DNA of 64,000 nucleotides from an uncultured bacterium (GTDB lineage: Bacteria; Fidelibacterota; Marinisomatia; SCGC-AAA003-L08; JACNLC01), in the NCBI GenBank assembly GCA_964527215.1, contig CAZGNZ010000001.1:129276-193275 (forward strand), given 5' to 3'. Below the pieces are notes generated by a model. It ran no database searches. It saw only the letters and a list, made by a program, of their open reading frames with translations, and had not been told where the DNA came from. Shown here piece by piece: positions 35,620-52,435 of this stretch; positions within the stretch are counted from its first letter, which is position 1, and each line of letters starts with the position of its first letter. The translations under genes and the position numbers were made by a program.

Positions 35620-36786
35620 TTATTCCCGCCAGCCAGGCAGATCATCCGGATATTCAGCTTCGTCCGACTCGTGACAACCCTCGCAGGACGGCGGTTCACC
35701 AAAGTCTTCATCGATATGACAGTCTGAACAGTCCAGGTCTTCATGATCTTCGCTTAGAATAAGACCTGTAACCCCATGATCAAAGGATCCGGCCAGCCAG
35801 TGGATGTGACAGCTGGTACAGTTAACGGACGGTGAGGAAAAGTCCTTGACCGATCCATGGCAGCTTTCACAGGATACCCCGTCATGCCTTGGACTCAAAG
35901 GCCATCCGACTGAAACGGCGTGATCAAAAGCAGGCTTTTCTTCCATACTGTGGCAGAAGCCGCATTCCTGTTCAGAATTGCAGTTGGCGACGTGACATTT
36001 GCAGCAGCTGTTGCGGCACAACGCACAATCATCAACAGCCATGGTTTTCTCCGTGGGATTGATATGCTCCTCATGGCACTTCCGGCAGCCGTCCCCCTGA
36101 TGACAATCCACACACTGCAGACCGAACAGGTCAACATGATCTGTATGATGGAAAGTCACCACGGGCCCATCCTGGAGATGAGTGTGATAAATATATTTTT
36201 CTTCCGCGACGATTTTCGGATGATGAGTCATCCCCATAATATCCGATTTATCAACTGCAGCAGTTTTCCCGGAAGCATCGTCTGCAACTTCATGACAGAT
36301 ATTACACTCGGATTCATGGCTCCATTCACGGTGGCAGTTCAAACACTGCCGGTGGTAGGCGGCTTTCAGAGAAGGTTTCTGAATGCTGATGGAATCCCCT
36401 GTGGCATCATGGCATTCGCGGCACGGCGGTACCGGTTTATCCGGTTCCGAGAAGTGGTGGCATAACTCGCACCCACCGGACATATCCGACATTTCGGCAT
36501 GGAGTTTATGAGTAAAAAAGACGGGTTTGTACAGATTCGCAAGGTGATCCATGATAACTATTTCAGGTCCTTCGGTAATCTGATGCCGACCTTCAAAATG
36601 TCCCTCGTGGCGTGGACAATCAAGTAGGCAGGGATCTTCCTTCGTAGGCTGGTCACATACATGACATGTGGCACAATAGCGGTTCAGTGACTGTTTGTGG
36701 AAATCATCGTCGGTTCCGGCAGACCAAAGAAAACTGAGTACCGGAAGAAGCAGAGCTGCAGAGATTTTAATATTTGATTTACGCAT
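35620..36786 (-). CDS. Periplasmic multihaem cytochrome c, 13 CxxCH motifs (Hmc/Nhc-type partner of the FeS/NrfD module)
   Basis: It has a signal peptide (MRKSNIKISAALLLPVLSFLWSA). Hand-counted motifs are CATCH, CELCH, CRECH, CLNCH, CNICH, CVDCH, CRKCH, CCKCH, CGFCH, CESCH, CTSCH, CSDCH and CEGCH. The start overlaps the NrfD-like stop by 8 nt. Confidence 0.9.
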   Translation of the reverse strand: MRKSNIKISAALLLPVLSFLWSAGTDDDFHKQSLNRYCATCHVCDQPTKEDPCLLDCPRHEGHFEGRHQITEGPEIVIMDHLANLYKPVFFTHKLHAEMSDMSGGCELCHHFSEPDKPVPPCRECHDATGDSISIQKPSLKAAYHRQCLNCHREWSHESECNICHEVADDASGKTAAVDKSDIMGMTHHPKIVAEEKYIYHTHLQDGPVVTFHHTDHVDLFGLQCVDCHQGDGCRKCHEEHINPTEKTMAVDDCALCRNSCCKCHVANCNSEQECGFCHSMEEKPAFDHAVSVGWPLSPRHDGVSCESCHGSVKDFSSPSVNCTSCHIHWLAGSFDHGVTGLILSEDHEDLDCSDCHIDEDFGEPPSCEGCHESDEAEYPDDLPGWRE

Positions 36787-37993
36787 GTTTTTTGTGCTCC
36801 AATTCTTCTATCACTGGGAAATGAATGACAAAAAACCGGTATACCAGAATCAGCAGTGAAATGAATCCAACAGTGACCAGTATCTCGGTGATTGCAGGAA
36901 TATACCTGGACTCGGCATATGGGGGCTGATACCCGACGATGAATACATTGACCCGATTAAGGACCACACCAACTACGACTGCCGCAGCGCCGCTGAACAG
37001 CCAGATGATTTGTTTCCGAAATCTGCGGCTTGACAAAACCACAATGGGATATATCACGCCAATGAGCATCTCTGCATTGAAGAACCAGGACTCCACAGTT
37101 CCCTCAAGAACATAGTGAAAAGTCCCGCGGTTCACCATATCCAGAGTTTTGGCAAACAGATAAATCCACAGCAGCAGTGGCAGGTAACGGGCATACTGAC
37201 TTAAAATTGATATTTCCGGTTTCAATTTGAAAGACCATGATGCCAGCAGGGATTCAAAAATCACCATCGCGATTCCCACGGCAAAGGCGGACAGGAGAAA
37301 AAGGAGCGACAGAATGGGTGTGTGCCAGAGAGGGTGCAGTTTCGAAGGCACAATCACCATCAGCGTACCCAGCGAGCTTTGATGCATACAGGACAGCACC
37401 ACCCCCAAAATGATAAATATAAACATAGCCTTGCCGAATGTGTTGTCCAGGAATTTGAGCAGTCCTTCCGTGGCGTTATTCAGGCTCTTCATGATACCCG
37501 GAAGATTCACCCGTGATCGAAAGCGTTCAGTCAGAATGGGAATAAACTCAATATAAAGTACTGTCAGGTAACTGACAACACAGATGCCGACTTCAAACAA
37601 GGCTGAGTTGCCCTGCCACATTGAAGGAAGCAGAACATGCCATATCCAGTAGTAGCGACCGAGATCAATCACCACTCCCAAAGCCACAAAGGTATATCCC
37701 AGCATGGCAGTGAGCAGTGCCGGCCGGGTAAGTACCGCGTAGCGCTCGCGATGCATGATGTGGGCAATGAAGCTGGAGGTAAATCCACCGGCTGCAAGGG
37801 CCACACCGCAGGCCACATCAATCCCAATCCAGATACCCCACGGATACTGACCGTCAAGGTTCGTGGCAGCTTCAAGACTGAAAACAAAACGGTAGAATGC
37901 ACTGGCAAGCCCAAGGGCGGCCAGCGCAGTGAGAATCCAGACTCCAGGCGTAAAATAGGGGATACGTTTGACGGGGAGGACGGCAGTGGACAT
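36779..37993 (-). CDS. NrfD/PsrC-family integral membrane quinone-interacting subunit
   Basis: A 404-aa polytopic protein. …NLDGQYPWGIWIGIDVACGVALAAGGFTSSF… is the typical NrfD/HmcC/DsrP/ActC-type N-terminal signature. The ATG overlaps the FeS-subunit stop. Confidence 0.85.
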   Translation of the reverse strand: MSTAVLPVKRIPYFTPGVWILTALAALGLASAFYRFVFSLEAATNLDGQYPWGIWIGIDVACGVALAAGGFTSSFIAHIMHRERYAVLTRPALLTAMLGYTFVALGVVIDLGRYYWIWHVLLPSMWQGNSALFEVGICVVSYLTVLYIEFIPILTERFRSRVNLPGIMKSLNNATEGLLKFLDNTFGKAMFIFIILGVVLSCMHQSSLGTLMVIVPSKLHPLWHTPILSLLFLLSAFAVGIAMVIFESLLASWSFKLKPEISILSQYARYLPLLLWIYLFAKTLDMVNRGTFHYVLEGTVESWFFNAEMLIGVIYPIVVLSSRRFRKQIIWLFSGAAAVVVGVVLNRVNVFIVGYQPPYAESRYIPAITEILVTVGFISLLILVYRFFVIHFPVIEELEHKKHA

Positions 37994-38901
37994 TATTCTT
38001 CCTCCTTATTGTATAGTTTCATTGCCAGGCCCAGCAAACCGGCCAGAAGAATCGGTCCACTGAATCCTTTGAAAATACCATGCTGAATGGATTCAGTCAG
38101 GTGCGCGGGGCAGTCACTGGACAGTACCGGGAGGTCAACCTCCTCAAAGGGCACATTTGAGATGTACATCCAGCTGGTGCCGCCGACTTCATGTTCACCG
38201 TAAACATGATCCACATAGCGGTCCGGGTGTGTTCGAATACGTTCATGAGCGAGTTCAAGCAGCTCGCTCCTTTTTCCGAAAACCATCACTTCACGCGGGC
38301 AGATCGAAACGCAGGCCGGGAGTTCACCGGTTTCAATGCTCTGTTCAAAGCAAAGTCCGCATTTCATGACCTTGGGTGTCAGGGCATTGCTGTATTCATA
38401 CTGGGGAATTTGGAAGGGGCAGGCAACCATGCAGTAACGACAGCCGATACACTTGCTGGCGTCATATGTAACCGGCCCCTTCGGATTTTTTTCCAGAGCG
38501 CCTACAATACAGGCAGAAACACAAGCAGGATGCTCACAGTGCATGCACTGTACTTTTACATCCAGCGGGAAGCCGTCGATACCTTTTCCGGGATATCGGT
38601 TAACCACGGTGTACTGGTGGTCTGACGGCCGCCGAAATTCTTCCATAACAGAGGGATCGTCATACGAAGCAATGTCATCATGCGGCAGTCCATTGTTTTC
38701 TGCACATGCATATTCACATTTCCGACATCCGATACAAAGAGTCAGGTCAGACAGAACTCCTATCCTATCCGGATCAAGCATGGCATCATGCGTGGCCTTC
38801 TGGGCAGAAGTAATGTGCGTATTGGTGTGGGAAGGGACGGTGCTCGCTGCTGCAGTCCCGGATAAAAGTCCCACTGCCTTAAAGAATGATTTTCGATCCA
38901 T
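37993..38901 (-). CDS. Tat-exported 4Fe-4S ferredoxin-type subunit (NrfC/PsrB/HybA/HmcB-like) with a C-terminal TM anchor
   Basis: It has a Tat-like leader (MDRKSFFKAVGLLSGTAAAS, an RK variant). Cys clusters are CIGCRKCEYAC, CMHCEHPACVSAC, CIGCRYCMVACP and CGLC…CVSICP. The C-terminal helix is GPILLAGLLGLAMKL. Confidence 0.85.
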   Translation of the reverse strand: MDRKSFFKAVGLLSGTAAASTVPSHTNTHITSAQKATHDAMLDPDRIGVLSDLTLCIGCRKCEYACAENNGLPHDDIASYDDPSVMEEFRRPSDHQYTVVNRYPGKGIDGFPLDVKVQCMHCEHPACVSACIVGALEKNPKGPVTYDASKCIGCRYCMVACPFQIPQYEYSNALTPKVMKCGLCFEQSIETGELPACVSICPREVMVFGKRSELLELAHERIRTHPDRYVDHVYGEHEVGGTSWMYISNVPFEEVDLPVLSSDCPAHLTESIQHGIFKGFSGPILLAGLLGLAMKLYNKEEE

Positions 38902-38915
38902 GGTTGAATATTCCT

Positions 38916-40895
38916 TTACTTCCGGTTGTTTTCAGAAATATGTGACAGCTCTTTCATTTTCTTTAATTCGTTTTTTAAATCTCTTTCCATTTCTGCTTTG
39001 GCCTCTTCAACATAATCCGGATGCTCATGTGCATACATGTCTTCAGGCATCTTTCCGGTAAGCCATGACGGATTCATGGGATACACTTCCGGATTGAAAA
39101 CAGTCGAATAGAAATGCCAGATGGCAATAGCCAGTGTGGCAAGCCAGGCTTCCCAGTAGTGGACCACCAATGCCACATCCAGGACACCTTTCGGGAAAAA
39201 CTGAATAAAATAATTGTCAAACCACAGCAGCAGGCCGCTGACGATCATCACAACAGTACCCCAGACCAGCGCCCAGTATTCTGCTTTTTCAACGTAGCCG
39301 AATCTTTTAAACCGCGGAGATGTTTTTGACAGACCCAGATAAAATGCAATTCTGTGACCGAATTGAGTAAAATCAAGCAGTCTGGGCCACATATCCACAA
39401 GGAACTGGCGGCCGCGTCGGGTAAACAGAAAGATCGTGTGCCACAATACCGTTATAATAAACAGAACGGCAGCATAGCGATGGGCCAGACCGCGCATCTC
39501 AAATCCGCCTTCCCAACCGAAGAAGGTTTTTGCCATCCAGGACTCGCTGAAACGCAGTGAAAAACCGGTAATGACCAGTGCAATAAACGAAACCATTAAA
39601 AAAGTGTGCTGCCATACTTCATGCAGCTTCATTCGGCGAATTTGGGGTTTTTTGATGACAAGGCGAAGCTGGCGATACAGGTCCAGAATCCAGTGTATCA
39701 CCATAAAACCGATAATAATGACTATGGCAACGATATATATTTTTTCAACGATATCCGCCACGGTAGTCTGCAGACCTGTACCCGAAACACTGTGAATGGC
39801 AGTGCTGGCCAGTTTGGCCGAGATTCCGGGGTGACATTCACCACAGGTCGCTCTCAGATTGTTGGGGTGAACGGTTGAGCTGGGATCCGTGCTTGGCAGG
39901 ATTCGGTGGACGCCATGGCAGGATGCGCAGTTGGCTACATGCGTGTCGCCCGCCTTACTCTTTAATCCGTGATAAGAGTCAACAAAAGTATTCAGCCGTC
40001 CTGTCGGCAATCCGTATTTTTCATTAAGCCGGGTGGATTCATGGCAGGGAGAGCAGGTTGCTTCGGCAAGCCTTGCCGCGGATACGGGAGATCGGGGATC
40101 TGAGGGTGAAATAATGCCGTGTTCCCCGTGACAGTCCGTACAGACCGGGGCATCCGTTTCTCCTCTGTCAACCAGCTTACCGTGTATGCCGTCCATGAAA
40201 TCATTTTCGATTCCTCTATGACATTTTCCACAGGTCTGAGGAATATTGAAGTGATTTATTGCGGATTCAGGATGACCGGGTGAATAGATATGGTGCGAGC
40301 TGCCGCCTGAACTGTGACAGTCATCACAGGTTGCCGCGACATAAATCCCGCCTGTTGTGGCTTTTCCATGAACACTGTTGGAATACATTTCAACCGGATG
40401 CGACAAAAGCAGATCATACTGATTGATGAGGTCCAGGTTTTCGTGGCATCTTCCGCAGGTGGCGGGAAGATTGGTAGGATGCACCAGAGAATGCTTTATA
40501 TCCGGAGGCAGTACCTCGTGGGTGCCGTGGCAGTCAGCGCAGGAGGGGATATCTCCGCACTCCCCGACAATTTCACGTCCGTGAGCCTGATACTCTTCGG
40601 ACTGGTCATCATGGCAGGTTCGGCAGCCCTCACAGCCGACATCCAGATAGGCCTCTTCATGAGGGTAATACTCCTTATCCTGGTGACAGTCCTGACACTC
40701 AAGATCTTCATGGATGGAATGCGAAAGATCGTCTTGAATAACTGTCCCGTGAATTCCCGTTTCGTGACAGTCGCTGCATGAATCCGAATCAATTTCTTCA
40801 GCCTCTTCGCCAGCTGCCGGAAAAGCGAAACAGCCTAAAATGAGAGAAAAAAAGATCAGTAAACGGTGTGTATCGATTTGTTTGAGCAAGTGCAT
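38916..40895 (-). CDS. Fusion protein: 11-haem cytochrome c (periplasmic) plus C-terminal membrane b-type cytochrome domain (CbcL-like)
   Basis: It has a signal peptide and 11 CxxCH motifs (CSDCH…CGECH). These are followed by 4-5 TM helices with conserved His (…EVWQHTFLMVSFIALVITGFSLRF…AHRYAAVLFIITVLWHTIFLF…VHYWEAWLATLAIAIWHFY…). That region resembles the FdnI/HydC (Ni/Fe-hydrogenase b-type cytochrome) family. Confidence 0.85.
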   Translation of the reverse strand: MHLLKQIDTHRLLIFFSLILGCFAFPAAGEEAEEIDSDSCSDCHETGIHGTVIQDDLSHSIHEDLECQDCHQDKEYYPHEEAYLDVGCEGCRTCHDDQSEEYQAHGREIVGECGDIPSCADCHGTHEVLPPDIKHSLVHPTNLPATCGRCHENLDLINQYDLLLSHPVEMYSNSVHGKATTGGIYVAATCDDCHSSGGSSHHIYSPGHPESAINHFNIPQTCGKCHRGIENDFMDGIHGKLVDRGETDAPVCTDCHGEHGIISPSDPRSPVSAARLAEATCSPCHESTRLNEKYGLPTGRLNTFVDSYHGLKSKAGDTHVANCASCHGVHRILPSTDPSSTVHPNNLRATCGECHPGISAKLASTAIHSVSGTGLQTTVADIVEKIYIVAIVIIIGFMVIHWILDLYRQLRLVIKKPQIRRMKLHEVWQHTFLMVSFIALVITGFSLRFSESWMAKTFFGWEGGFEMRGLAHRYAAVLFIITVLWHTIFLFTRRGRQFLVDMWPRLLDFTQFGHRIAFYLGLSKTSPRFKRFGYVEKAEYWALVWGTVVMIVSGLLLWFDNYFIQFFPKGVLDVALVVHYWEAWLATLAIAIWHFYSTVFNPEVYPMNPSWLTGKMPEDMYAHEHPDYVEEAKAEMERDLKNELKKMKELSHISENNRK

Positions 40896-40920
40896 GGTTT
40901 TTCCTTCATGATTGTTGATT

Positions 40921-41385
40921 TCATGATGTGTCCGTACCAGTCGTGTATCTCAGGTACCGCTTTAAATTCCTATATGGTTCAAGATTTCGATATACCTCAC
41001 ATTCTCTGCAGCTGGATTTCGATAAACTGTCTGCAGCAAGCCAACAGGGCCCGGTGATTGATGTGACTGCACTGCACTGTGCATTGCCTCCAGAATTGCA
41101 TCCCCGAATATTCCAGCAGGGAATCAGTGCCAGGAGCGCTTTTATGCCGGCAATATTCAATCCCTGCTTTTCGATCAGGAAGCGAATATGGGTCAGGCGC
41201 TTAATATCGTTCACCGAATACAAACGATGTTTTGTCCTGGTCCGCTGTGTCAGTATCAGCCCGTTATTTTCATAAAGCCGAAGCGTGTGAACAGAAACCC
41301 CGATTATTTCCGCTGCTATTCCAATGGTAAAAACCGGATGGTCTTCTTCCAGCAGTTTATTTTCTTTGCGAGGTTTCAAATCCAT
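40921..41385 (-). CDS. MerR-family transcription regulator with a C-terminal Cys-rich two-CW-like domain (paralog 1)
   Basis: The HTH is …FTIGIAAEIIGVSVHTLRLYENNGLILTQRTRTKHRLYS…. The tail is …LALIPCWNIRGCNSGGNAQCSAVTSITGPCWLAADSLSKSSCRECEVYR…. I chose the ATG at 41385; the track's TTG at 41391 is possible. Confidence 0.8.
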   Translation of the reverse strand: MDLKPRKENKLLEEDHPVFTIGIAAEIIGVSVHTLRLYENNGLILTQRTRTKHRLYSVNDIKRLTHIRFLIEKQGLNIAGIKALLALIPCWNIRGCNSGGNAQCSAVTSITGPCWLAADSLSKSSCRECEVYRNLEPYRNLKRYLRYTTGTDTS

Positions 41386-41404
41386 CAACAATAAACTATA
41401 AAGT

Positions 41405-41426
41405 ATCTATATTTTAGGATATAGAT
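41405..41426 (-). promoter_or_regulatory. Perfect inverted repeat ATCTATAT-N6-ATATAGAT in the AT-rich region just upstream of the MerR/cytochrome operon (candidate operator)
   Basis: The palindrome is seen directly in the sequence, 20-41 nt upstream of the MerR start. MerR-family operators are typically dyads inside the promoter spacer. No -35/-10 assignment was possible by eye. Confidence 0.3.
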
Positions 41427-41545
41427 ATATTAAGATCATAATGTACAAATATAAAAGAAAATATGTCCTCTTTAATGAACATTGTTCAAAAAAAACCTGG
41501 CAGTCCTGATTGATTGTTCATGCCGAATAAAAACCGCTGAAAATG

Positions 41546-41570
41546 AAAAAGGGAGAGGTCGTCCTCTCCC
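41546..41570 (-). terminator. Rho-independent terminator downstream of the 1022-aa cytochrome gene
   Basis: On the minus strand it reads GGGAGAGG-ACGA-CCTCTCCC followed by TTTTTCATTTT. Confidence 0.65.
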
Positions 41571-41814
41571 TGTTGTTAACTTTTTTATCTGCATACCGGT
41601 TTCAACACTCCGATGTTGGTTCTTCAGAAAAACGTTTCCAGTCAGGAATCTTCTTCTGAAAATCAAACATCAGTGATCAGTCCCCAGTTGGGGAATTGGA
41701 AATGCAGCGTGAGTGCTCGTCCTTTCAGCGTCGGATTCGGAAATTCGATTCAAAGAGTTTTCCGGAAAACCGATCGGGTTGAACCAATTCTCACTCGCTG
41801 AAATGGTCCAACTG

Positions 41815-44800
41815 CTACTTCAGCAGCATAACCTTTCTGGATTCTGTGACGGTTTCCGTGATCAAACGTATGATGTAGACACCGCTTGCCTGACCGGAAG
41901 CATCCCAGTTCATGGAATGATATCCAGCCGGCATATTTCCACTGAACAGAGAGGTGATTTCCCTTCCCATGGCATCGTAAACGATAATTTCCAGTCTGCT
42001 GTCCTCAGGCAAGGAGAAATCAACAGTAGTGACAGGGTTGAAGGGATTGGGATATGCAGCGCTGAGTGCAAACTCATCCGGGATGGAATTCACCACCGCA
42101 AACACACCGTTGCCGCTCCAGTCGGCAGTCAGCATGGTTTCAACCTGAACAAGACCGGTATAATACAATAGGATATCTTCAGTCTCACTGCCGTTGGTGT
42201 TTACACCGACCAGGCGGGTATCTGAATGATCAACCAGCCAGCCGTCGGGCAGGTTTGAAGATGTGATTACGAGGTCACCCTGGAAACTGATTTCAAAACC
42301 GGCAATTTCCCCGTCAGACGTGATTTTCATCTCTCCGCCGCCAACCTGCAGCTGAGCTTCTGAAACAGGATTTAGACGCAAAACGTCATTACCAAGGATG
42401 TGGGCGACCACAGCCACAACATCCAGAATATCAATGGCTCCGTCTCCGTTCCAGTCACCTGCATAATCAATATAACTGGTGTGTTCCAAGTGACCCAGAA
42501 TTACACTGACAATCTGAACAATATCAAGAATGTCAATATTGAAATCGCCGTTCACATCACCGGCATCACCCACCATCACTGATTCCAGAGGTGAATTTTC
42601 GGACTCATTCTCATGAACATCCGTAGCCGTGATTGAATACATGTACTCACCGCCTGACGACAGGCCAACATCCTGAAAACTGCTGGTGGCGCTGTAGCCG
42701 ATCAACTCACCGTTTCGGTAGACTGTGAAATACTGAAAATCCGCATCCTGCGGCTCATCCCAGCTGATTTCAACAGACTGATTTCCATAGACTGCCAGGA
42801 ATCCGGACGGAACGGTTGGTGCAAGATTGTCGACAGAGTATCCTTCTGCAACGGTGGATTCGTATATCATCCCTGCCTGGGAAATCGAATACACCTGGAA
42901 TGAAGTCAGAGCATTGTCAACAGATGTGGAATCAAACAATGTGGGCACTACCAATGAGTACCGGTCGCTGCCGTCCGCAGGATGATCCCCGACAAGAGTC
43001 CATGTATCATCATAGGCATCATACCGTTTAATCGTATAGAACTCCACCGGGTCAGGCGCGATGCCGTCATTAACAAATGCATCCCAAATCACTTTGACCT
43101 GGCCTCCCTGGTCATTGGGAATATCATCAATTGAGACGATATCGCCATCGAGAGCACCGTTCTGCATGGCGGTTATGGATGCATTCAGCAATGCAACGGT
43201 AAAGGCCGGGTTGTGAATGCCGTAGCTGTGATCATAATACACCATGTCATAGTTGAAAGCGGCCTTCAATTCGGTCAGCGACCATGTTTCATCCACATCG
43301 TCATGGGGATCATAATGAGTTGTGTCGTCGGAATGGGGCAGCATGGCTCCTAATATGTCAAGGAGTCCGTGAACCTCGTGCTGCAGCCCTTCAGGTGTGC
43401 CGTCGCCGTCAAGATCCGCATTGCCGTCAACATAAAACATTTTTTCATCAAATGAATCACCCACATCACCGTGACAGTCAGTGCAGATGGCTACATTGTC
43501 AACGCCCTCTTCCGTAACAACCGAGAATGAATGCCCGCCGACCAGCAGCGAATGTCCTTCATCATCGGTCATCGGCGAACCCATATGACATGACGTGCAT
43601 GAATTCTCAATGCCGGCCAGATGAGGTGAGGTGGGCAGATCAAGTCCAAAAGTGATCGCATTGGTTGCCGCCAGCATATCTGCCTGCGGAACATAATGCG
43701 GACCGTAATGTGAATGCGGCTCATCGGAGTAGGAGTCTGCGTCACGGCGGCCTTGATGACAGTTCATGCAAAGCTTTCCGGATCCGCCCTGGGTGACCAT
43801 TTCTCCGTTGTTCAGCTCAACATCCGCCAGAGTACGTATCTGATACATGTTTTCAGCACTGTGCGGTTCATGACAGGTGGCACAGGTGATCGGCATATAA
43901 CTGGGATCGAAATCGGGATCATCGGTTTCAACGCCGTCAACATACTGTATAAATCCGGTTCCGGTATGACATCTGACACAGCTTTCCCTGCCGGGTCCGG
44001 TCGGGTATGATGTGGGTGCTGCATGACCGGAAATATCCCACTGCTCCGGATATACATGATAATGACCGTCATCGTGGCAGTAGGCACAATTTGCGGATTC
44101 CAGGTTGGATACCATGCGGTTATCGGACGTTTGACCCATATGAGCACTGCCCGGTCCATGACAGCTTTCACACTGAATCCGACCCAGCTGCATTGCATCA
44201 GGGTAAAAATCATAAAGCAGATCAAACACACCCGGGAAGAGATGACCGTCCTCTGAGCCGTAATTGTCAACCAGATCAGCCGAGTCAGGAAATACAAATT
44301 CCCAGTCATCAAATCCATCGTTATCCGCATAAATATCGTGACCGGTTGTATGGCAGTCCAGACAGTAGCTGGCATAGTGGTCACTCAGTGTTCCATTCAT
44401 TCCTTCCTCAAAGATGGAGTAGTGACCAGTCATTTCCCATTCCGAATGCTGATCTGAGTGACACATACCGCACAAACCGTCATCTATTCCAATATAGTGG
44501 GCTGCATTAACAGTGACCTCGGCCATAACACCATTATCAGAAAATTCAATAATATATGTACCCTCCAGATCCGGCATGAAAGAAATTACCTGAGTATATT
44601 CATCAGGATTTTCTGAAGGACCCGGTACCGAGGCAGAACCGGCAGGTGCAGACAAAACTGTCCAGACAGGGGCTGTCAGAACAGCATCGGATGTACCCTG
44701 AAGGAACATGGTGGTTTCAACACCGACATTCAATAATCCCGTATATCGATACTCATATATGTCCAACGTATCCAGACCGGCTTCGCGGGGCGAAACACCA

Positions 44801-44883
44801 TATGGTTCCACAGTTACTGTCTGTGACAGCAGGACAGTGAACATGCATATTATTACAATTGGTAGCAGTGGTGCATTTTTCAT
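41815..44883 (-). CDS. Cell-surface multihaem cytochrome c: 9 CxxCH motifs, beta-sandwich/FN3-like region, dockerin-like repeats and a T9SS C-terminal sorting domain
   Basis: It has a signal peptide (MKNAPLLPIVIICMFTVLLSQ) and an AGGAGG Shine-Dalgarno. Motifs are CGMCH, CLDCH, CESCH, CAYCH, CVRCH, CATCH, CMNCH, CTSCH and CTDCH. The dockerin-like pair is DVNGDFNIDILDIVQIV…/DWNGDGAIDILDVVAVV… (nt ~42391-42570). The C-terminal tail (nt ~41818-42084) is …SAAYPNPFNPVTTVDFSLPEDSRLEIIVYDAMGREITSLFSGNMPAGYHSMNWDASGQASGVYIIRLITETVTESRKVMLLK. Confidence 0.9.
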   Translation of the reverse strand: MKNAPLLPIVIICMFTVLLSQTVTVEPYGVSPREAGLDTLDIYEYRYTGLLNVGVETTMFLQGTSDAVLTAPVWTVLSAPAGSASVPGPSENPDEYTQVISFMPDLEGTYIIEFSDNGVMAEVTVNAAHYIGIDDGLCGMCHSDQHSEWEMTGHYSIFEEGMNGTLSDHYASYCLDCHTTGHDIYADNDGFDDWEFVFPDSADLVDNYGSEDGHLFPGVFDLLYDFYPDAMQLGRIQCESCHGPGSAHMGQTSDNRMVSNLESANCAYCHDDGHYHVYPEQWDISGHAAPTSYPTGPGRESCVRCHTGTGFIQYVDGVETDDPDFDPSYMPITCATCHEPHSAENMYQIRTLADVELNNGEMVTQGGSGKLCMNCHQGRRDADSYSDEPHSHYGPHYVPQADMLAATNAITFGLDLPTSPHLAGIENSCTSCHMGSPMTDDEGHSLLVGGHSFSVVTEEGVDNVAICTDCHGDVGDSFDEKMFYVDGNADLDGDGTPEGLQHEVHGLLDILGAMLPHSDDTTHYDPHDDVDETWSLTELKAAFNYDMVYYDHSYGIHNPAFTVALLNASITAMQNGALDGDIVSIDDIPNDQGGQVKVIWDAFVNDGIAPDPVEFYTIKRYDAYDDTWTLVGDHPADGSDRYSLVVPTLFDSTSVDNALTSFQVYSISQAGMIYESTVAEGYSVDNLAPTVPSGFLAVYGNQSVEISWDEPQDADFQYFTVYRNGELIGYSATSSFQDVGLSSGGEYMYSITATDVHENESENSPLESVMVGDAGDVNGDFNIDILDIVQIVSVILGHLEHTSYIDYAGDWNGDGAIDILDVVAVVAHILGNDVLRLNPVSEAQLQVGGGEMKITSDGEIAGFEISFQGDLVITSSNLPDGWLVDHSDTRLVGVNTNGSETEDILLYYTGLVQVETMLTADWSGNGVFAVVNSIPDEFALSAAYPNPFNPVTTVDFSLPEDSRLEIIVYDAMGREITSLFSGNMPAGYHSMNWDASGQASGVYIIRLITETVTESRKVMLLK

Positions 44884-45283
44884 GAAGTAACCTCCTGTTG
44901 TTGGTCGGAATTAGGATTAATTCCTTTAAGATAGGATGAGTGAATTTAGCAGATGAGTTATTGTGATAACAAGACCTAAATGTATTAAATATAATATAAT
45001 GTTTATCAATAAATGCAATTAATATAAATAATAGATAATAATTATAATAAATATTGAAATACACCCAATGCAAATATTTCAGTGTAGGATATTTATGGGA
45101 TTGCTTAATTCAAGGATATAATTTGAAAATTTAAACCGAATTTTTCATGAGAATATCTGTGCGTAAACTGTTTCATAATTTCCGGTTTATGATAGTTCTG
45201 GTTGATTCTGCACAGACAGTCAGCAGACTGATTTTAAATTAGCTCGATATTTGTTCTCATTGTACTGTCCGGTACAATGTCGA

Positions 45284-45530
45284 TGAATTTCCCCGCCCGT
45301 CAGCTGACGGGTGGGGTATCAGTAAACGATCGGGTCATTATATGTCTCGCCGCCACGCCAAATGACGGATTTTCAATAACCGGCGGGGAATCCACCATGT
45401 CACACTTGTCAGTCAGGAGACGGATTAAAAATCCGCCAACCGGCGGATTCATATCTCTTTGCAGGCCTTTCATAATCAATCGTCTCCGCCATTTCATTTC
45501 GAAACCTCATGAAACATCCGGACTAAAAAG
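45284..45530 (-). repeat. REP-like hairpin element cluster, copy 2 (core module inverted relative to copies 1 and 3)
   Basis: On the + strand it reads ATGAATTTCCCCGCCCGTCAGCTGACGGGTGGGGTATCAGTAAACGATCGG…CGCCGCCACGCCAAATGACGGATT, the reverse complement of the copy-1/3 consensus. Extra hairpins follow (CCGGCGGGGAATCC…, AATCCGCCAACCGGCGGATT). Confidence 0.8.
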
Positions 45531-45534
45531 ACCA

Positions 45535-45566
45535 GACCGGATTGAACCGGTCTGGAAATTGGAATC
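45535..45566 (-). terminator. Rho-independent terminator after the 833-aa cytochrome gene
   Basis: On the minus strand it reads CCAGACCGG-TTCAAT-CCGGTCTGG followed by TCTTTTTAG, 28 nt downstream of the stop at 45594. Confidence 0.65.
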
Positions 45567-45593
45567 TGAAGTTCAGCTGGAATACGTTTTGGG

Positions 45594-48095
45594 TCAGAAA
45601 AAGGTGCCCACGATAATCAGTGTCAGAAGCAGGAAACCAACGATCAGGAAAATCGCACCAATAATCAGCAGAAGCTTTTTTAATACGGGATGGGTGGGGT
45701 TTATCAGGGCTTCCTGATATTCAGAATCACTGAGGAGGTTTTTTTCTCTGGGCCGCTCTTTGGCGAATCTTTCCTCTGTTACCCGGCCTGTGAATATGAC
45801 TTCATCCATGGGGAATGCGCCCGGGCGCAGATGGGTGTTGAAAAAATGCACCGTAAAAATGAATGCAGTTGCAAGCAGAGCTTCTTCCGAATGGATAATA
45901 TGCGCGGCATTGATCAGCCAGCCGGGAAATGCCCGTGCAAACTGTTCCGGAAACCAGAGTGTCAGACCGCTGATTCCAATAACAATCATGCCCCAGAAAA
46001 CTGCAAAGTAATCGAATTTTTCCCAGTATGTCCAGCGGCCGAACTCCGGTTCTTTTTTCCGCAATCCGATGAAATAAGCCAGATGATTGAAGAAATCAGA
46101 AAAATCCTGGAGATTTGGTACTAAACTGTCAGGTCCCCAGAACAGTCCTTTTTGTTTTCTCACTGTCGCTTTATAGATCAGCATGAATACATGGATGAAC
46201 ATAACGACAAACAGAATTACTGCAGCCACCCGGTGAGCCAATGCGGCAGCATGAAATCCGACAATATTGTGAACAAACCAGTTTGCCATCTCTGAATGAC
46301 TGTATTTTAGAGGCAGACCGGTTCCTGCCAGCACCAGAAACCCACCGGCCATGAAAAAGTGAAGAATTCGGTCGAACAGGTTGAATCTCTTTACGCGACG
46401 GCTGGTTTTTGGAGGAGGATGGATGGGGCCGTGTCTTAACCTGTGGATCATGAGTCGAATAAGCCAGAGCAGTGTATGGCCGCCAAATACAACAAACACG
46501 CCGCCAAGGAGCCAGATCATAAACAGATGTATGCCGTGAAGGACAGGGTTTTCCTTCTCAGTCATTGGAGTGTAATGTTCCAGATACTGAACAAAATTCT
46601 CACTGACATTTTCATGGCACTGGCTGCAGGTTTCAATAATGCGTTCTTTTCCTATACTGGAGGCCGGGTGATCGGAAGGCAGAATTGAATGATTGTCGTG
46701 ACAGGAGACACAGGTGGCAAATTCTTCACCCTGATATCCCAGCTGATACATTTGACCGTGATAAGATGTGTTGTATCCTTCCACGACATGTGCGTTCAGC
46801 TGAAATTTCATGGTTAGACTGCGGTCCGCATGGCAGCGGCTGCAAAGGTCAATGGTGGATTGTCCGATGAATTTCTCATCCGATTTCTGGATTCTGCGTT
46901 CATCGTGACACTCGATACAGCCCGGAGCTTCAAAATGACCCTTTTGTCTGGCGATATAATGAGAGGACTGCTCGTATTCTTTCTGCACGTCCGGATGACA
47001 GTCCGCGCAGGATTTTTCCAGAGCCTGGTCCTGGGAATGCTCCGGTGCCATGTAGTGATATGTATGGCAGTCTCCGCAGTTGGAGGCTTCCCCGTTTGCT
47101 ATTTTCTCCAGTTCGGTTCTGTGAATAATACCATGGGCATCATTTTCACCAATGATAAGATCCTGCCCGTGGCAGCGAATACAGACACGGTCCAGTTCGA
47201 TATCAAACACCGTGGTTCGAGTGGTACCCACCATTTCGGTCTCATGACCGGTGTGACATACAACACACGTTGTCATTCGGGGATCCTCAAGGCGGTCCGG
47301 CTGGTGGATGGATGCTTCATAGCCGGAATGACACTTCGTACAGACCATATCCAGTCTTGCAACAGACACTCGACTGTCCGGATCACGCGGGGAGAGTACT
47401 TTGTGGCTGGCGTGACAGTCAGAGCATATAGGCGCTTCAAGATTGCCCTGAGTCAGCTGTTCATAATGCCCGCTGTTGAAGTAGTTTTCAACGTTTTCCC
47501 GGTGACAGATTCGGCAGGATTCCGCGAGGTGAATTTTCCATCCAAATTCGGTATACTGCTGCTTTTCATGCTTATTGTGCGGTGAATGGCAGGAGACGCA
47601 GGTGACATCACCGGTCTGGGTGTCTTCATGCCAGTGTGCTGACTGCAGGAACTCATCCAGGATATCCTGATGACAGGTTCCGCAGACCTGCCGCGGCTGA
47701 CCTTGCCAACTGACTTTATGAGCTCCGTGGCAGTCAGAACAAGTCGGCAAAGCGGTATATCCTTTTGCCCGCAGCGGAGCGAAAAATCCGTCTATGAACT
47801 CTTCCTGGGCATCTTCATGACAGATACCGCAGTCAGGTATGATCAGACGTTCTTCATGAGGGAAATCATCTATGCCGTCTAAATCTTCATGACAGTCAAT
47901 GCAATCAAAGTCCTCATGCGGGGTTCCTGATAAATGATCCGATGTCACATGCAGAGACACTTCCACACCATGTTTCACTTGTGAGAGTTTCTCATCGTCA
48001 TGACAGGCTTCACAGGTTTCATTGTCCTGCATTAGAACTGGGGTCGTTAAAATTCCGACAAGACCGGCAAACAGCAGAATTCTATTCCGAAGCAT
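45594..48095 (-). CDS. Fusion protein: 17-haem cytochrome c plus C-terminal membrane b-type cytochrome domain (second CbcL-like paralog)
   Basis: It has a signal peptide and 17 CxxCH motifs by hand count (CEACH … CSQCH). TM helices with conserved His follow (…GIHLFMIWLLGGVFVVFGGHTLLWLI…RILHFFMAGGFLVLAGTGLPLKY…AHRVAAVILFVVMFIHVFMLIY…HIIHSEEALLATAFIFTVHFFNTHL…). Confidence 0.85.
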   Translation of the reverse strand: MLRNRILLFAGLVGILTTPVLMQDNETCEACHDDEKLSQVKHGVEVSLHVTSDHLSGTPHEDFDCIDCHEDLDGIDDFPHEERLIIPDCGICHEDAQEEFIDGFFAPLRAKGYTALPTCSDCHGAHKVSWQGQPRQVCGTCHQDILDEFLQSAHWHEDTQTGDVTCVSCHSPHNKHEKQQYTEFGWKIHLAESCRICHRENVENYFNSGHYEQLTQGNLEAPICSDCHASHKVLSPRDPDSRVSVARLDMVCTKCHSGYEASIHQPDRLEDPRMTTCVVCHTGHETEMVGTTRTTVFDIELDRVCIRCHGQDLIIGENDAHGIIHRTELEKIANGEASNCGDCHTYHYMAPEHSQDQALEKSCADCHPDVQKEYEQSSHYIARQKGHFEAPGCIECHDERRIQKSDEKFIGQSTIDLCSRCHADRSLTMKFQLNAHVVEGYNTSYHGQMYQLGYQGEEFATCVSCHDNHSILPSDHPASSIGKERIIETCSQCHENVSENFVQYLEHYTPMTEKENPVLHGIHLFMIWLLGGVFVVFGGHTLLWLIRLMIHRLRHGPIHPPPKTSRRVKRFNLFDRILHFFMAGGFLVLAGTGLPLKYSHSEMANWFVHNIVGFHAAALAHRVAAVILFVVMFIHVFMLIYKATVRKQKGLFWGPDSLVPNLQDFSDFFNHLAYFIGLRKKEPEFGRWTYWEKFDYFAVFWGMIVIGISGLTLWFPEQFARAFPGWLINAAHIIHSEEALLATAFIFTVHFFNTHLRPGAFPMDEVIFTGRVTEERFAKERPREKNLLSDSEYQEALINPTHPVLKKLLLIIGAIFLIVGFLLLTLIIVGTFF

Positions 48096-48261
48096 ATTTT
48101 ACCTTTCGATAGATTCCGGTAATTGTATATTTGGATATTACTATATGTAAGAGGATAAGAGTTCCGGAACCGGATATAAAACTACAGAGATTTTATTATC
48201 CGATTAAACAGAAAAGTATGGCTGGGAGAAAACCTTGTATGGGTGAGTTGTGTCGGTTAAA

Positions 48262-48310
48262 AAGTAAAAATGCCATACCTGTTCAGGAAAACAGGTATGG
48301 CATTTTTTTC
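48262..48310. terminator. Strong bidirectional-looking hairpin terminator between the c554-like gene and the 833-aa gene
   Basis: The perfect 14-bp stem ATGCCATACCTGTT (48270-48283) / AACAGGTATGGCAT (48290-48303) is flanked by an A-run and a T-run. On the minus strand it follows the stop at 48328. Confidence 0.8.
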
Positions 48311-48327
48311 TGGAGTGTAAACCGAAG

Positions 48328-48912
48328 TTATTTCTTTTTATCCTCCGGTGTGGGATGAGCGACTTCTTTGATACGCTCAGCAAAAACGAACTTTTTATAG
48401 GTCGGGCTTTTTTCATTGTGACAGGATATGCAAAGAGCTTCATTTGGTTCAATGAGACCCACAGAAGCGCCGTCAGTAGTGCCGACCGTAATGGCCTTCA
48501 TCACTTTTTTAGATTTATATTCACTGCCCGGACCGTGACAGCCTTCGCAGCCGACGCCTTTCAAACCGGTCATCCGCTTGACATCCTTGGTGGGCTTGCC
48601 TTTGTCCGTTGTCTGGGCCCAGAACTTTTCATCCTTCACCTCGAACCCGCCTGATCCAAAACCAGTCGCATGACAGGAGAGACATTCAGGTGCCTGCCAG
48701 GCCGGTACATTCAGTTTCATCTCTTCTGCAATCTTCTTTGACTGTTCGGATTTCAGGGTTTCCATTGCACCAATATGCAGACCTTTTTCCCAGGCACCAA
48801 ACTGGTGTTTATGGCACATTTTGCATTTGGCTGAACCAACATATTCAAACTTTGCATCCTGTGCCCACATGAATGGTACACAGAGCAAAAAAAGTATCCA
48901 AAATCGTTTCAT
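48328..48912 (-). CDS. Tetrahaem cytochrome c, cytochrome c554-like
   Basis: MKRFWILFLLCVPFMWAQ is a signal peptide, followed by …VGSAKCKMCHK…W…H. Motifs are CKMCH, CLSCH, CEGCH and CISCH. I trimmed the start from the track (49026) to the ATG at 48912, which gives a proper signal peptide. Confidence 0.85.
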   Translation of the reverse strand: MKRFWILFLLCVPFMWAQDAKFEYVGSAKCKMCHKHQFGAWEKGLHIGAMETLKSEQSKKIAEEMKLNVPAWQAPECLSCHATGFGSGGFEVKDEKFWAQTTDKGKPTKDVKRMTGLKGVGCEGCHGPGSEYKSKKVMKAITVGTTDGASVGLIEPNEALCISCHNEKSPTYKKFVFAERIKEVAHPTPEDKKK

Positions 48913-48938
48913 AACTAACTTCCTCACTTTTTCATCCG

Positions 48939-49370
48939 TTAGAAAATGGGATTTTCCGCCCCATGGCACTGATGGCAGCCCATGGCAACTGGTCCATCGC
49001 TGTTTAGACTGTGGCACTGCCAGCATGTTTCCGCCTGGTCCTCGGAACCGTTGGGATCCATCCCTGCGCCGTGAAAATCATCAGTTCCGGATCTCAGATG
49101 ATCGATGGTACCCGGGTGGCCGCTGGCACCTCCGGCATGACACATGGTACATGAAACACCGGAATGTCCGCCATCCAGAAAAGTACCGTGACAGGTCTTG
49201 CATGACTCGAGTCCTTCCCAACCACGGGTCGCAAGCATCTGGCCGTGAAAATCAACACTGTTTTGATTCATCCAGGTGTCGCTGTGGGTATCTGGCTGAA
49301 CAGATTCAGTACAGGACCAGAAGCTCAGAGCGGTGACGATCAAAATGGTTAACGCGGTATATCTTTTCAT
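48939..49370 (-). CDS. Small tetrahaem cytochrome c lipoprotein
   Basis: MKRYTALTILIVTALSFWSC is a lipobox-type signal. Motifs are CKTCH, CTMCH, CWQCH and CHQCH. A GGAGG Shine-Dalgarno sits 6 nt upstream. The start was trimmed from the track (49466), and it lies directly after the upstream stop. Confidence 0.85.
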   Translation of the reverse strand: MKRYTALTILIVTALSFWSCTESVQPDTHSDTWMNQNSVDFHGQMLATRGWEGLESCKTCHGTFLDGGHSGVSCTMCHAGGASGHPGTIDHLRSGTDDFHGAGMDPNGSEDQAETCWQCHSLNSDGPVAMGCHQCHGAENPIF

Positions 49371-49371
49371 A

Positions 49372-50199
49372 TTAACCTCCATGACAGCGTTGGCAGTAGT
49401 GCGGCTGATGACAGGACTGACATACTTCGGGTGTGGATTCTGCGGCATCTGCATGCATTCCCGCATTGCCGTTGATTATGCCCCAGGTTGTCAGATTGTG
49501 ATCGGCTGGCATAATCATCCGCTGTATGTGACAGGACTGACAGTCATTTTCAATTTGATGGCAGGTCATGCATTCAACTGCATCCAGCCGGGCTTCCAAT
49601 CCGTGAGCCACAATATAGGCCGGTGGATGAGTACTTTTTTCAAAACCCGAATGGTGATGACAGTCATCGCAGAATTTTTCCGTATGGCACATGCTGCAGC
49701 TGGCGGCCTGCGGGTGATTGACGGACAGACCGTGGTCCTCATCCCAGGTGATGTCATGGCTGGCAGGTTCATGTGACTGATGGCATTGTGAACAGGCTGC
49801 CCTTGGCCATGGCTGGCGCAGCGCTTCACCGTCATCTGAGGTGATTCCGCTGTGGCAGGTTTCACAATTTGGTGTGGATGGCCGGTGTGCGGCATGGGAA
49901 AAGTCCACGCCGGATGTGGATCCCATCAGGGGATATGTGTCGGCCTCATCCACATTGGAATGGCATAGTTCACATTCATCTTCCACATCGTGACATTCGG
50001 AGCAGAAATCCATATCCGGCAGATATCCCGGTGTGAGAGATTCAGAGTCTGAAACACCGCTGTGACAGTAGTCGCAGGATAGTTCGACATCCGTAATATG
50101 AAGATCATGCGGAAATATGATGTGATCCGGATCCATTGAGAATCCGTAAGCCGCTAACAAGCTGACTGTCAGCAATGCTTTACAGAGTATACGAAACAT
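49372..50199 (-). CDS. Periplasmic 11-haem cytochrome c (c3/c7-type packing)
   Basis: MFRILCKALLTVSLLAAYG is a signal peptide. There are 11 CxxCH motifs in 275 aa (CDYCH, CSECH, CELCH, CETCH, CSQCH, CSMCH, CDDCH, CMTCH, CQSCH, CQSCH, CQRCH). A GGAGG Shine-Dalgarno precedes the gene, which overlaps the barrel-gene 3' end by 20 nt. Confidence 0.85.
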   Translation of the reverse strand: MFRILCKALLTVSLLAAYGFSMDPDHIIFPHDLHITDVELSCDYCHSGVSDSESLTPGYLPDMDFCSECHDVEDECELCHSNVDEADTYPLMGSTSGVDFSHAAHRPSTPNCETCHSGITSDDGEALRQPWPRAACSQCHQSHEPASHDITWDEDHGLSVNHPQAASCSMCHTEKFCDDCHHHSGFEKSTHPPAYIVAHGLEARLDAVECMTCHQIENDCQSCHIQRMIMPADHNLTTWGIINGNAGMHADAAESTPEVCQSCHQPHYCQRCHGG

Positions 50200-51358: not shown

Positions 51359-51443
51359 AATCTCATTCATCAAAAAGGTTGAAAGGGAGCAAACCCACAT
51401 TCATGGCATTTGCTCCCTGAAAAAGTTCGCTTTGGCGAAAGGC

Positions 51444-52394: not shown

Positions 52395-52435
52395 TCTATT
52401 GTTCTCCTATTGTTTTAAAGTACTTAAATCAGGGA

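Follow-up and report, generated by a model that had tools for sequence, protein, structure and literature searches.

Proteins of the CbcL/MtrH/MtoC family join a secreted multihaem cytochrome c to a membrane-embedded cytochrome b; Zhong and Shi recorded 138 of them in 15 phyla, with lengths of 416–1034 amino acids (aa), 3–23 CxxCH haem-binding motifs and mostly six transmembrane (TM) helices, a few having four or five, and Marinimicrobia is absent from their tables (PMC6295460). That survey took sequence similarity to Geobacter GSU0274, Gallionella Galf_2006 or Rhodoferax Rfer_4073 (BLAST E<0.01) as its criterion. Homologues are found in Fe(III) reducers and Fe(II) oxidisers alike (PMC6295460). 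In Geobacter sulfurreducens, CbcL is needed for EET (extracellular electron transfer) towards low-potential acceptors and is off at high potential (PMC9129911; bioRxiv 10.1101/2022.08.31.506072), and CbcL-type bc cytochromes are among the few known gateways between the quinone pool and EET. Here we describe a 64,000-nucleotide stretch of DNA from an uncultured bacterium (contig CAZGNZ010000001.1 of assembly GCA_964527215.1; hereafter the window), the minus strand of which encodes two such fusion proteins, A with 11 CxxCH motifs and B with 17. We argue that A and B are probably quinol/quinone:cytochrome oxidoreductases of the inner membrane that diverged long ago within the CbcL/MtrH/MtoC superfamily, and that they would form the inner-membrane entry to an extracellular electron-transfer chain. 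Judged by the names given to homologues, the window belongs to Marinimicrobia (Neomarinimicrobiota, Fidelibacterota, SAR406), and several public assemblies hold a copy of A that is 100% identical (P0001) and has the same neighbouring genes.

Two cytochrome c–cytochrome b fusion proteins

The two open reading frames (ORFs) and their domains, with the evidence for each in brackets, are:

38916-40895, minus strand: ORF A, a 659-aa fusion of an 11-haem cytochrome c and a dihaem cytochrome b, with five TM helices (ORF, CxxCH count, Pfam, Foldseek)
39831-40778, minus strand: predicted periplasmic c-haem domain of A, aa 40-355, with 11 CxxCH motifs and a signal-like N-terminal helix before it (motif positions)
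39018-39647, minus strand: FdnI-like cytochrome b core of A, aa 417-626, with putative ligands H430, H472, H579 and H594 and the loop Y534-E536-K537 (phmmer, MAFFT, conservation in 116 representatives)
45594-48095, minus strand: ORF B, an 833-aa fusion of a 17-haem cytochrome c and a dihaem cytochrome b, with six TM helices (ORF, CxxCH count, PF01292, AlphaFold2 (AF2), Foldseek)
46614-48014, minus strand: predicted periplasmic c-haem domain of B, aa 28-494, with 17 CxxCH motifs (motif positions, conserved His)
45600-46397, minus strand: cytochrome b core of B, aa 567-783, with putative ligands H579, H621, H735 and H750 and the motif RWTYWEKFDYFAVFWGM, together with an extra C-terminal TM helix, aa 803-832 (MAFFT, AF2, conservation)

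Both reading frames are intact and lie where a preliminary description of the window had put them, and each begins, as it had also claimed, with an N-terminal signal followed by a CxxCH-dense region. The 11 motifs of A and the 17 of B compare with about 0.06 and 0.10 expected by chance from the Cys and His content of the respective protein, and almost every cysteine lies within a motif (34/34 in B, 22/25 in A). The same number of motifs recurs among homologues, in 120/120 of the matches listed for A and, counting only full-length proteins, in 93/102 of those for B; the homologues thereby indicate that the haem counts of A and B are fixed by selection. Outside the motifs, the c-haem domain of A has 13 conserved histidines for its 11 haems (43 orthologues) and that of B has 16 invariant histidines for its 17 haems (49 orthologues), one haem of B being without an obvious conserved distal histidine, and neither domain has a conserved methionine. 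This pattern fits bis-His electron-transfer haems, and the c-haems of both proteins are apparently of that kind.

The C-terminal domains resemble the γ subunit of formate dehydrogenase-N, FdnI. In the hidden Markov model search that had been proposed as a check, Pfam PF01292 (Ni_hydr_CYTB) matched A over aa 429-603 with 45.2 bits and B over aa 570-747 with 44.0 bits, each above the gathering cut-off of 30.1, and phmmer aligned aa 417-638 of A to E. coli FdnI (1kqf_C). When AF2 models of the two proteins (mean predicted local distance difference test (pLDDT) score 69.9 for A and 82.2 for B) were compared with the PDB by Foldseek, chain 1kqf_C was the sole significant match for both, with a probability of 1.00 and TM-scores, normalised to FdnI, of 0.74 for A and 0.79 for B; E. 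coli HyaC ranked next. A MAFFT alignment equates the FdnI haem ligands H18, H57, H155 and H169 with H430, H472, H579 and H594 of A and with H579, H621, H735 and H750 of B. These four histidines are 100% conserved in an alignment of 47 family sequences with FdnI, and are kept in 110–116 of the 116 representatives of clusters formed at 50% identity. The positional conservation of membrane-domain histidines noticed in the preliminary description is thus borne out, since they align to all four haem-b ligands of FdnI.

The most conserved stretch of the family is R-x-x-Y-x-E-K-F-D-Y, in which the Y, E and K are each present in >97% of sequences. These residues (534, 536 and 537 in A; 690, 692 and 693 in B) align to FdnI positions 111-114, within the loop K108-K114, which we take from the 1KQF and 1KQG structures to line the site for menaquinone or 2-heptyl-4-hydroxyquinoline-N-oxide (HQNO) beside the cytoplasmic haem. 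By this alignment, the quinone site of A and B would lie on the cytoplasmic side of the membrane. Two further histidines mark the family and are lacking in FdnI. The extra helix TM0 carries one (A H401, B H540), which is kept in 89/94 representatives, and TM2 has a second one (A H486, B H635; 82/116 representatives). Their codons fall at about 39691-39693 (A 401), 39436-39438 (A 486), 46476-46478 (B 540) and 46191-46193 (B 635). The two residues might lie along the quinone site or ligate an additional cofactor, and through them the A-type subfamily may have additional chemistry, in the form of a third haem or of an unusual site for quinone.

Both a hydropathy scan and the AF2 models give A five TM helices, that is TM0 and the four of the FdnI fold, followed by a soluble amphipathic C-terminal helix (aa 626-658), and give B six, including the C-terminal helix at aa 803-832; the membrane domains had been described as bundles of four to five helices, which holds for A and undercounts B. 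Six helices are typical of the family, so that B conforms to the usual number and A does not, the published family tolerating four or five. Lysine and arginine are concentrated in the odd-numbered loops (7 and 10 residues in loops 1 and 3 of A; 9, 8 and 9 in loops 1, 3 and 5 of B) and are scarce in the even-numbered loops, with 3 in loop 2 and 1 in loop 4 of A and with 0 and 1 in those of B, and the c-haem domain of A has an acidic region free of lysine and arginine near the membrane. This distribution of charge puts the c-haem domain of both proteins in the periplasm and not in the cytoplasm, which is where covalent haem attachment requires such a domain to be.

With a secreted multi-CxxCH domain, a PF01292 C-terminus and the histidine ligands for two b-haems, A and B are probably members of the known CbcL/MtrH/MtoC superfamily, and their design is an already known one, ordinary in kind; the CbcL-like architecture first proposed for them, in which an exported multihaem c domain runs on into a dihaem b domain of FdnI/HydC type, is upheld by Pfam, by alignment and by Foldseek. 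They had also been called divergent paralogues, and are indeed old and far apart, being 28% identical overall and 35.7% identical in the b core. A further suggestion, that 17 haems on one such fusion is large, applies only relative to the 9-haem GSU0274 of G. sulfurreducens: the published range of 3–23 (PMC6295460) and the 19-, 21- and 23-haem relatives that we met rule out that B is exceptional in this respect.

To place A and B within the family we took as the basis for comparison with CbcL the motif positions of GSU0274 (34, 57, 82, 105, 129, 158, 186, 229 and 257; Table S2). Among the 9-haem representatives found with the b domain of B, seven have the GSU0274 spacing and others that of MtoC/MtrH. 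The b core of B is 37–49% identical to proteins with CbcL-like spacing, 39–44% to those with MtoC-like spacing and 48–53% to 19-haem fusions of Gemmatimonadota, Acidobacteriota and others, whereas the b core of A is 26–36% identical to every non-A sequence and 26–33% identical to the 9-haem proteins with CbcL-like spacing. A bootstrapped neighbour-joining tree of the b domains (a distance method, in which haem spacing identified CbcL and MtoC proxies and no named reference sequences were included) recovered the A family as monophyletic in 100/100 bootstraps and a non-A clade that leaves A out in 74/100, with B nested among proteins of CbcL- and MtoC-like spacing and members with 7–23 haems. 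The tree thus suggests that B lies inside the broad CbcL/MtoC clade, and CbcL fragments taken from an unreliable machine reading of the supplementary alignment of PMC9129911 resemble B. Ahead of TM0, A, B and GSU0274 place their last three c-haems at the same intervals (about +42 to +44, then +28), which argues that this membrane-proximal module is homologous in all three.

Searched against 1.84 billion representatives, the b domain of B matched 2113 clusters with E<=1e-3, of which 373 reached E<=1e-30, and the b-domain motif (RWTYWEKFDYFAVFWGM in B) is common to 103 genome loci of other phyla; none of the 103 loci matching WEKFDYFAVFWGM, for which a back-translated and GC-biased query was used, is from Geobacter. 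In the search for homologues of A, 7954 of the 8000 scored candidates passed, and the best 120 are 63–77% identical. By sequence, A represents a subfamily of its own that branches deeply, is dominated by Marinimicrobia and very common among them, and appears to retain each defining feature of the family save the sixth helix.

The cytochrome island and its counterparts in related genomes

The genes for A and B belong to a cytochrome island of about 19 kb (35620-54489) with seven cytochromes and 73 CxxCH motifs. Its remaining features, in the direction of transcription, are:

54043-54489, minus strand: MerR regulator, heading the cluster upstream of B (Pfam)
52436-53824, minus strand: 8-haem cytochrome (motif count)
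51444-52394, minus strand: rhodanese lipoprotein (Pfam)
50180-51400, minus strand: porin-like protein of 406 aa (β-barrel-like features)
49372-50277, minus strand: 11-haem cytochrome (motif count)
48328-49026, minus strand: c554-like 4-haem cytochrome (Pfam, motif count)
48266-48307, minus strand: terminator-like hairpin after the c554-like gene and upstream of B, with a 19-bp stem and a U tract (-27.9 kcal/mol, z -10.0)
45532-45555, minus strand: terminator-like hairpin downstream of B, with a 9-bp GC-rich stem and a U tract (-18.0 kcal/mol, z -6.3)
41815-44883, minus strand: 9-haem cytochrome of 1022 aa, bearing a type I dockerin and a type IX secretion system (T9SS) C-terminal sorting domain, between B and A (Pfam Por_Secre_tail, Dockerin_1 and MtrC/MtrF II-IV; TIGR04183)
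40921-41391, minus strand: MerR-family regulator, first gene of the A operon (Pfam MerR_1, E 2.6e-17; same place in locus L111)
37993-38901, minus strand: HybA/HmcB-like periplasmic 4x[4Fe-4S] protein, NrfC type (Pfam Fer4_11, 61 bits; NCBIfam HmcB 328 and HybA 246 bits)
36779-37993, minus strand: NrfD-family (HybB/HmcC-like) membrane quinone-interacting subunit (PF03916, 72 bits against a cut-off of 25.8; NCBIfam HybB 332 and HmcC 264 bits)
35620-36786, minus strand: 13-CxxCH periplasmic cytochrome (c3/HmcA-like) with a signal peptide, last gene of the A operon (Pfam Cytochrom_CIII)

Downstream of A lies an NrfCD-type module, that is an NrfD-family membrane subunit together with a periplasmic four-cluster ferredoxin, the N-terminus of which (MDRKSFFK) carries an RK Tat-like signal and the C-terminus a TM anchor (aa 276-294). 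The order MerR, A, iron–sulfur protein, NrfD and 13-haem cytochrome runs along the minus strand with gaps of 25 and 14 nt and then overlaps of 1 and 8 nt, and this tight packing speaks against the proposal that the NrfCD module provides a route separate from A; in this genome the common operon rules out that the two are separate units, and they are not clearly independent routes.

To examine gene context we sampled nine genomes with A and 11 related loci in all (L-numbers denote related genome loci). The closest relative, L111, in which A is 73% identical, has the same operon of MerR, A, iron–sulfur protein, NrfD and multihaem cytochrome with the same flanking genes for NAD kinase and XseAB. 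Loci L109 and L110 are collinear with each other, in the order multihaem cytochrome, rhodanese, a protein of about 390 aa, a multihaem cytochrome of about 280 aa, a small protein, c554-like cytochrome, B, A, MarR, iron–sulfur protein, NrfD and multihaem cytochrome; a MerR gene was seen at the head of this cluster in L110, B and A are separated by 20 nt in L109, and a gene for a NapC/NirT-type multihaem cytochrome stands between them in L110. Locus L112 has B, a NapC-type multihaem cytochrome, a second set of multihaem cytochrome, iron–sulfur protein and NrfD, and then A with its iron–sulfur protein, NrfD and multihaem cytochrome, whereas L116, from a very widespread lineage, has the island at the same chromosomal site without A. 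In L115, from a member of the FCB group outside Marinimicrobia, a multihaem cytochrome, a 422-aa protein, two further multihaem cytochromes and a c554-like cytochrome are followed by two tandem 17-haem fusions. The gene order upstream of B is kept in L109, L110 and L116 and, but for the rhodanese, in L115, and hence also outside Marinimicrobia. As for A, it lies in or beside a cluster of multihaem, porin-like and NrfCD-type genes in five of the nine genomes; in L107 it is without the NrfCD module and has other cytochrome genes nearby, and in L108, L113 and L114 it stands by itself amid housekeeping genes.

These gene orders mark B as the unvarying inner-membrane end of a conserved cluster, A and the NapC-type and NrfCD-type modules as variable additions to it, and the isolation of B by terminators and the presence of the T9SS cytochrome as particular to the lineage of the window. 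The preliminary description had made B its own transcription unit. This is supported here by the two bracketing hairpins with their U-rich tails, but the isolation is lineage-specific, B and A adjoining one another, 20–30 nt apart, in the cluster of relatives. The gene for the T9SS cytochrome has a hairpin terminator of its own after it (41571-41550). At its place between B and A, related genomes carry either no gene or one for a NapC/NirT-type cytochrome; when metagenomes were scanned for proteins akin to it, the sorting domain alone was matched.

A signal peptide, a near-absence of cysteine, 15–21 alternating-hydrophobic 9-mers and a conserved C-terminal GRGG-x-x-x-x-F/L characterise the 406-aa protein, and its relatives of about 390–420 aa are found at L109:4420-5586, L110:2477-3664, L115:3362-4630 and L116:5332-6528. 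Directly after the porin-like gene, and often overlapping it, there is always a gene encoding a multihaem cytochrome about 280 aa long. No match to it was found in Pfam, NCBIfam or the PDB, and no porin of the MtrB/PioB family was detected here. Since its features fit an outer-membrane barrel, the family may be a new porin family of a porin–cytochrome conduit.

Several other observations concern the island and its surroundings. A MerR regulator heads each of the two cytochrome operons (54043-54489 and 40921-41391), and relatives have a MarR-family gene between A and the NrfCD module. The rhodanese lipoprotein is a double rhodanese, with the lipobox FSGC followed by a poly-Asp run, and is conserved in the multihaem cluster of Marinimicrobia relatives; it may connect the cluster with sulfur chemistry, for example the handling of polysulfide or thiosulfate. 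The 8-haem cytochrome has a weak NrfA-like match in the PDB (E ~0.01 over 60 aa). The NapC/NirT-family multihaem cytochromes of relatives, 654–662 aa long, lie directly after B (L110:8006-9970, L112:5008-6993, L116:12564-14552); this further class of inner-membrane quinol dehydrogenase is absent from the window. In relatives, the island is flanked by genes for Fur, Rrf2, superoxide dismutase, AhpC or rubrerythrin. In the window, it is adjoined by the gene for a giant envelope protein of 1030 aa with a weakly DUF2490-like C-terminus (55347-58439, minus strand) and then by a giant ORF of at least 1850 aa (58442-63994, minus strand), which comes within 6 nt of the window edge and has DUF11 repeats, two OmpA domains, CarboxypepD_reg and Big_1. 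Elsewhere, inside a region of capsule and polysaccharide genes, lies a non-coding tandem repeat (20638-22758; period 458 bp, 4.5 copies, 74% matches) that is strongly enriched in C along its plus strand (GC skew -0.26), and in which no Rfam family, tRNA or long ORF was found.

Possible roles of A and B

Taken as quinol/quinone:cytochrome oxidoreductases at the head of an EET chain, A and B would work as follows. The analysis indicates that an N-terminal signal exports each protein, leaving an 11- or 17-haem c-type wire in the periplasm, that TM0 takes the chain across the membrane, and that the FdnI-fold bundle then binds two b-haems stacked across it. With the Y-x-E-K loop on the cytoplasmic side beside the inner b-haem, menaquinol would probably be oxidised, or menaquinone reduced, at the cytoplasmic face, and electrons would cross through the pair of b-haems to reach the c-haem wire. 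Their further path may lead to the neighbouring soluble multihaem cytochromes, to the putative porin–cytochrome conduit and finally to the T9SS-sorted 9-haem cytochrome at the surface. B would be the conserved inner-membrane end of the cluster, and A an accessory or alternative entry point, co-transcribed with the HybAB/HmcBC-like iron–sulfur–NrfD module and the 13-haem cytochrome. With a quinone site on the cytoplasmic side, outward electron flow would give a low H+/e- ratio, as has been argued for CbcL (bioRxiv 10.1101/2022.08.31.506072).

Several points weigh against this assignment. The functional case is built from sequence and predicted structures; the AF2 model of A is only moderately confident (pLDDT 70); and the alignment with FdnI is what positions the quinone site. 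Likeness to bona fide CbcL was judged through proxies, namely the published CxxCH spacing, the machine-read alignment and the 9-haem representatives, and A, at 26–36% identity to non-A members, appears to branch outside them. The identification of the 406-aa protein as a porin is heuristic. Finally, the occurrence of A alone in three of nine genomes, and without the NrfCD module in a fourth, fits a general respiratory role better than a dedicated part in EET.

This last point bears on what we regard as a possible, if doubtful, alternative, in which A, and perhaps B as well, takes the place of complex III as a general quinol:cytochrome c oxidoreductase and supplies periplasmic terminal enzymes, such as a cbb3 oxidase, NosZ, or nitrite or sulfur reductases, instead of an extracellular chain. 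The extreme commonness of A-type proteins would suit such a role, as would the resemblance of all the haems to bis-His transfer haems. The position of A in five of nine genomes, in or beside a cluster of multihaem, porin-like and NrfCD-type genes, does not, and L111 has a Rieske/cytochrome b complex right beside its A operon, so that A is no simple replacement for one; moreover, wires of 11–17 haems are longer than a soluble partner needs.

A second alternative keeps the proteins as we describe them and reverses the flow. A and B would be MtoC-like quinone reductases drawing, through the multihaem chain, on an extracellular or periplasmic donor, such as Fe(II), reduced sulfur or a partner cell, and with a cytoplasmic-side quinone site they would generate proton-motive force as FdnI does. 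The sequence is silent on direction, homologues occurring on both sides of iron metabolism (PMC6295460), and the FdnI-like position of the Y-x-E-K loop makes inward flow the energy-conserving direction; the conserved periplasmic rhodanese lipoprotein of the cluster also speaks for it. Against it, neither the window nor the clusters of relatives that were read contain genes for Cyc2, Sox, Dsr or Sqr. Moreover, Marinimicrobia are described as heterotrophs, as in the description of Fidelibacter. On balance we consider inward flow unlikely.

The preliminary description had itself proposed that A, B and the NrfCD module give the organism three independent routes between the quinone pool and the periplasm, each tuned to the potential of the acceptor, as are ImcH, CbcL and CbcBA in Geobacter (bioRxiv 10.1101/2022.08.31.506072; PMC9129911). 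Besides this precedent, A and B are old paralogues that Marinimicrobia have retained next to each other, the units are headed by separate MerR or MarR regulators, and relatives add a fourth candidate route in the NapC/NirT-type membrane cytochrome between B and A. However, A shares a single operon with the NrfCD module here, and the set of modules varies among close relatives, L116 having the same site without A; by analogy with Geobacter the arrangement is conceivable, and we think it rather improbable. Least of all do we credit that the C-terminal domains are ordinary FdnI/HydC γ subunits of a formate dehydrogenase or hydrogenase that were fused to cytochromes by chance, a reading invited by the many homologues labelled 'cytochrome b subunit of formate dehydrogenase', by TIGR01583 being the best NCBIfam match and by the HybA/FdnH-like iron–sulfur protein after A, but rejected because no gene for a molybdopterin or NiFe catalytic subunit was found in the window or the 11 related loci and the scores fall below the cut-offs (46.8 and 46.9 bits against 115.85 for TIGR01583; 22 and 30 bits against the equivalog cut-off of 341 for PRK10639), while the iron–sulfur gene is translationally coupled to that for NrfD and not to A, a MarR gene intervening in relatives.

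We thus retain the view that A and B are probably inner-membrane oxidoreductases of the CbcL/MtrH/MtoC superfamily that would lead into EET. More tentatively, and as a possibility that we would not put high, the island at 35620-54489 may be a complete and previously undescribed EET pathway of Marinimicrobia/SAR406. In such a pathway B, optionally with A and the iron–sulfur–NrfD module, would act at the inner membrane, the c554-like and 8–13-haem cytochromes in the periplasm, and the new porin family would follow; in this lineage, the type IX secretion system would export the surface 9-haem cytochrome and anchor it by way of its dockerin-bearing stalk. Marinimicrobia/SAR406 are among the most abundant bacterial lineages of the dark and oxygen-poor ocean, and two conserved, divergent CbcL-type versions in a syntenic cluster with a porin-like protein, many multihaem cytochromes and a T9SS-sorted cytochrome suggest that they can exchange electrons with particles, minerals or partner cells.

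Comparison with known systems

G. sulfurreducens CbcL (GSU0274, NP_951335.1) resembles A and B in its signal peptide, periplasmic multi-CxxCH domain, linker TM helix and HydC/FdnI-type dihaem b domain, and its c-haems are bis-His (PMC9129911), as those of A and B appear to be. B also has in common with it a sixth, C-terminal TM helix (the published table gives six for GSU0274), which A lacks. CbcL differs in having 9 haems in 619 aa, compared with 11 in 659 aa for A and 17 in 833 aa for B, and in belonging to another phylum; according to the literature it stands alone in its own genome, whereas B ends a porin–cytochrome-like cluster and A lies in an operon with an NrfCD-type module. MtoC and MtrH (Gallionella Galf_2006, WP_013293944.1; Dechloromonas Daro_1404, WP_011287162.1; Rhodoferax Rfer_4073, WP_011466333.1) have the same fusion architecture, and their genes adjoin the porin–cytochrome genes mtoAB or mtrAB much as B adjoins a porin-like protein and multihaem cytochromes, but they have 9 haems with another N-terminal spacing and come from Proteobacteria. 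E. coli FdnI (formate dehydrogenase-N γ subunit; PDB 1KQF chain C) has the same fold, the same four haem ligands and a loop at the position of the menaquinone/HQNO site; it is only about 18% identical to A and B, lacks the c-haem domain, TM0 and TM5, and has a molybdenum enzyme as its partner.

Geobacter CbcBA and other split forms relate to A and B in another way. CbcB belongs to the PhsC-like b cytochromes. Bacteroidota, Ignavibacteria and other phyla encode the b domain (motif WEKFDYFAVFWGM) as a separate protein of 273–336 aa, whereas in A and B it is fused. In the loci of Bacteroidota and Ignavibacteriota that we checked, the b gene is overlapped or directly preceded by a gene for a 19-haem cytochrome, and in Gemmatimonadota and Acidobacteriota the b domain and a 19-haem c domain are fused in proteins of about 950 aa; with split forms in some phyla and fusions in others (loci L004, L040, L049, L051, L093 and L094), fusion and fission must have occurred repeatedly in this bc family.

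The module downstream of A has the parts of the HybAB, HmcBC, Nhc and Qrc modules, namely a Tat-signalled, TM-anchored tetra-cluster ferredoxin, an NrfD subunit and a c3-type multihaem cytochrome. It differs from them in missing the equivalog cut-offs (HmcB 328 against 420, HybA 246 against 263, HybB 332 against 450, and HmcC also below), in having no hydrogenase genes, HmcDEF or QrcB, and in being linked, in this genome, to a CbcL-type fusion.

In the open-access full-text literature we found no paper on multihaem cytochromes or EET in Marinimicrobia, and none linking T9SS to multihaem cytochromes. Set beside the systems above, A and B add members and not a new kind, their 11 and 17 haems and fused design falling within published ranges. 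What appears to be new is the setting, a cytochrome gene island that is apparently undescribed for Marinimicrobia, and what is most interesting is this island as a whole together with the 9-haem cytochrome that carries a T9SS sorting domain.

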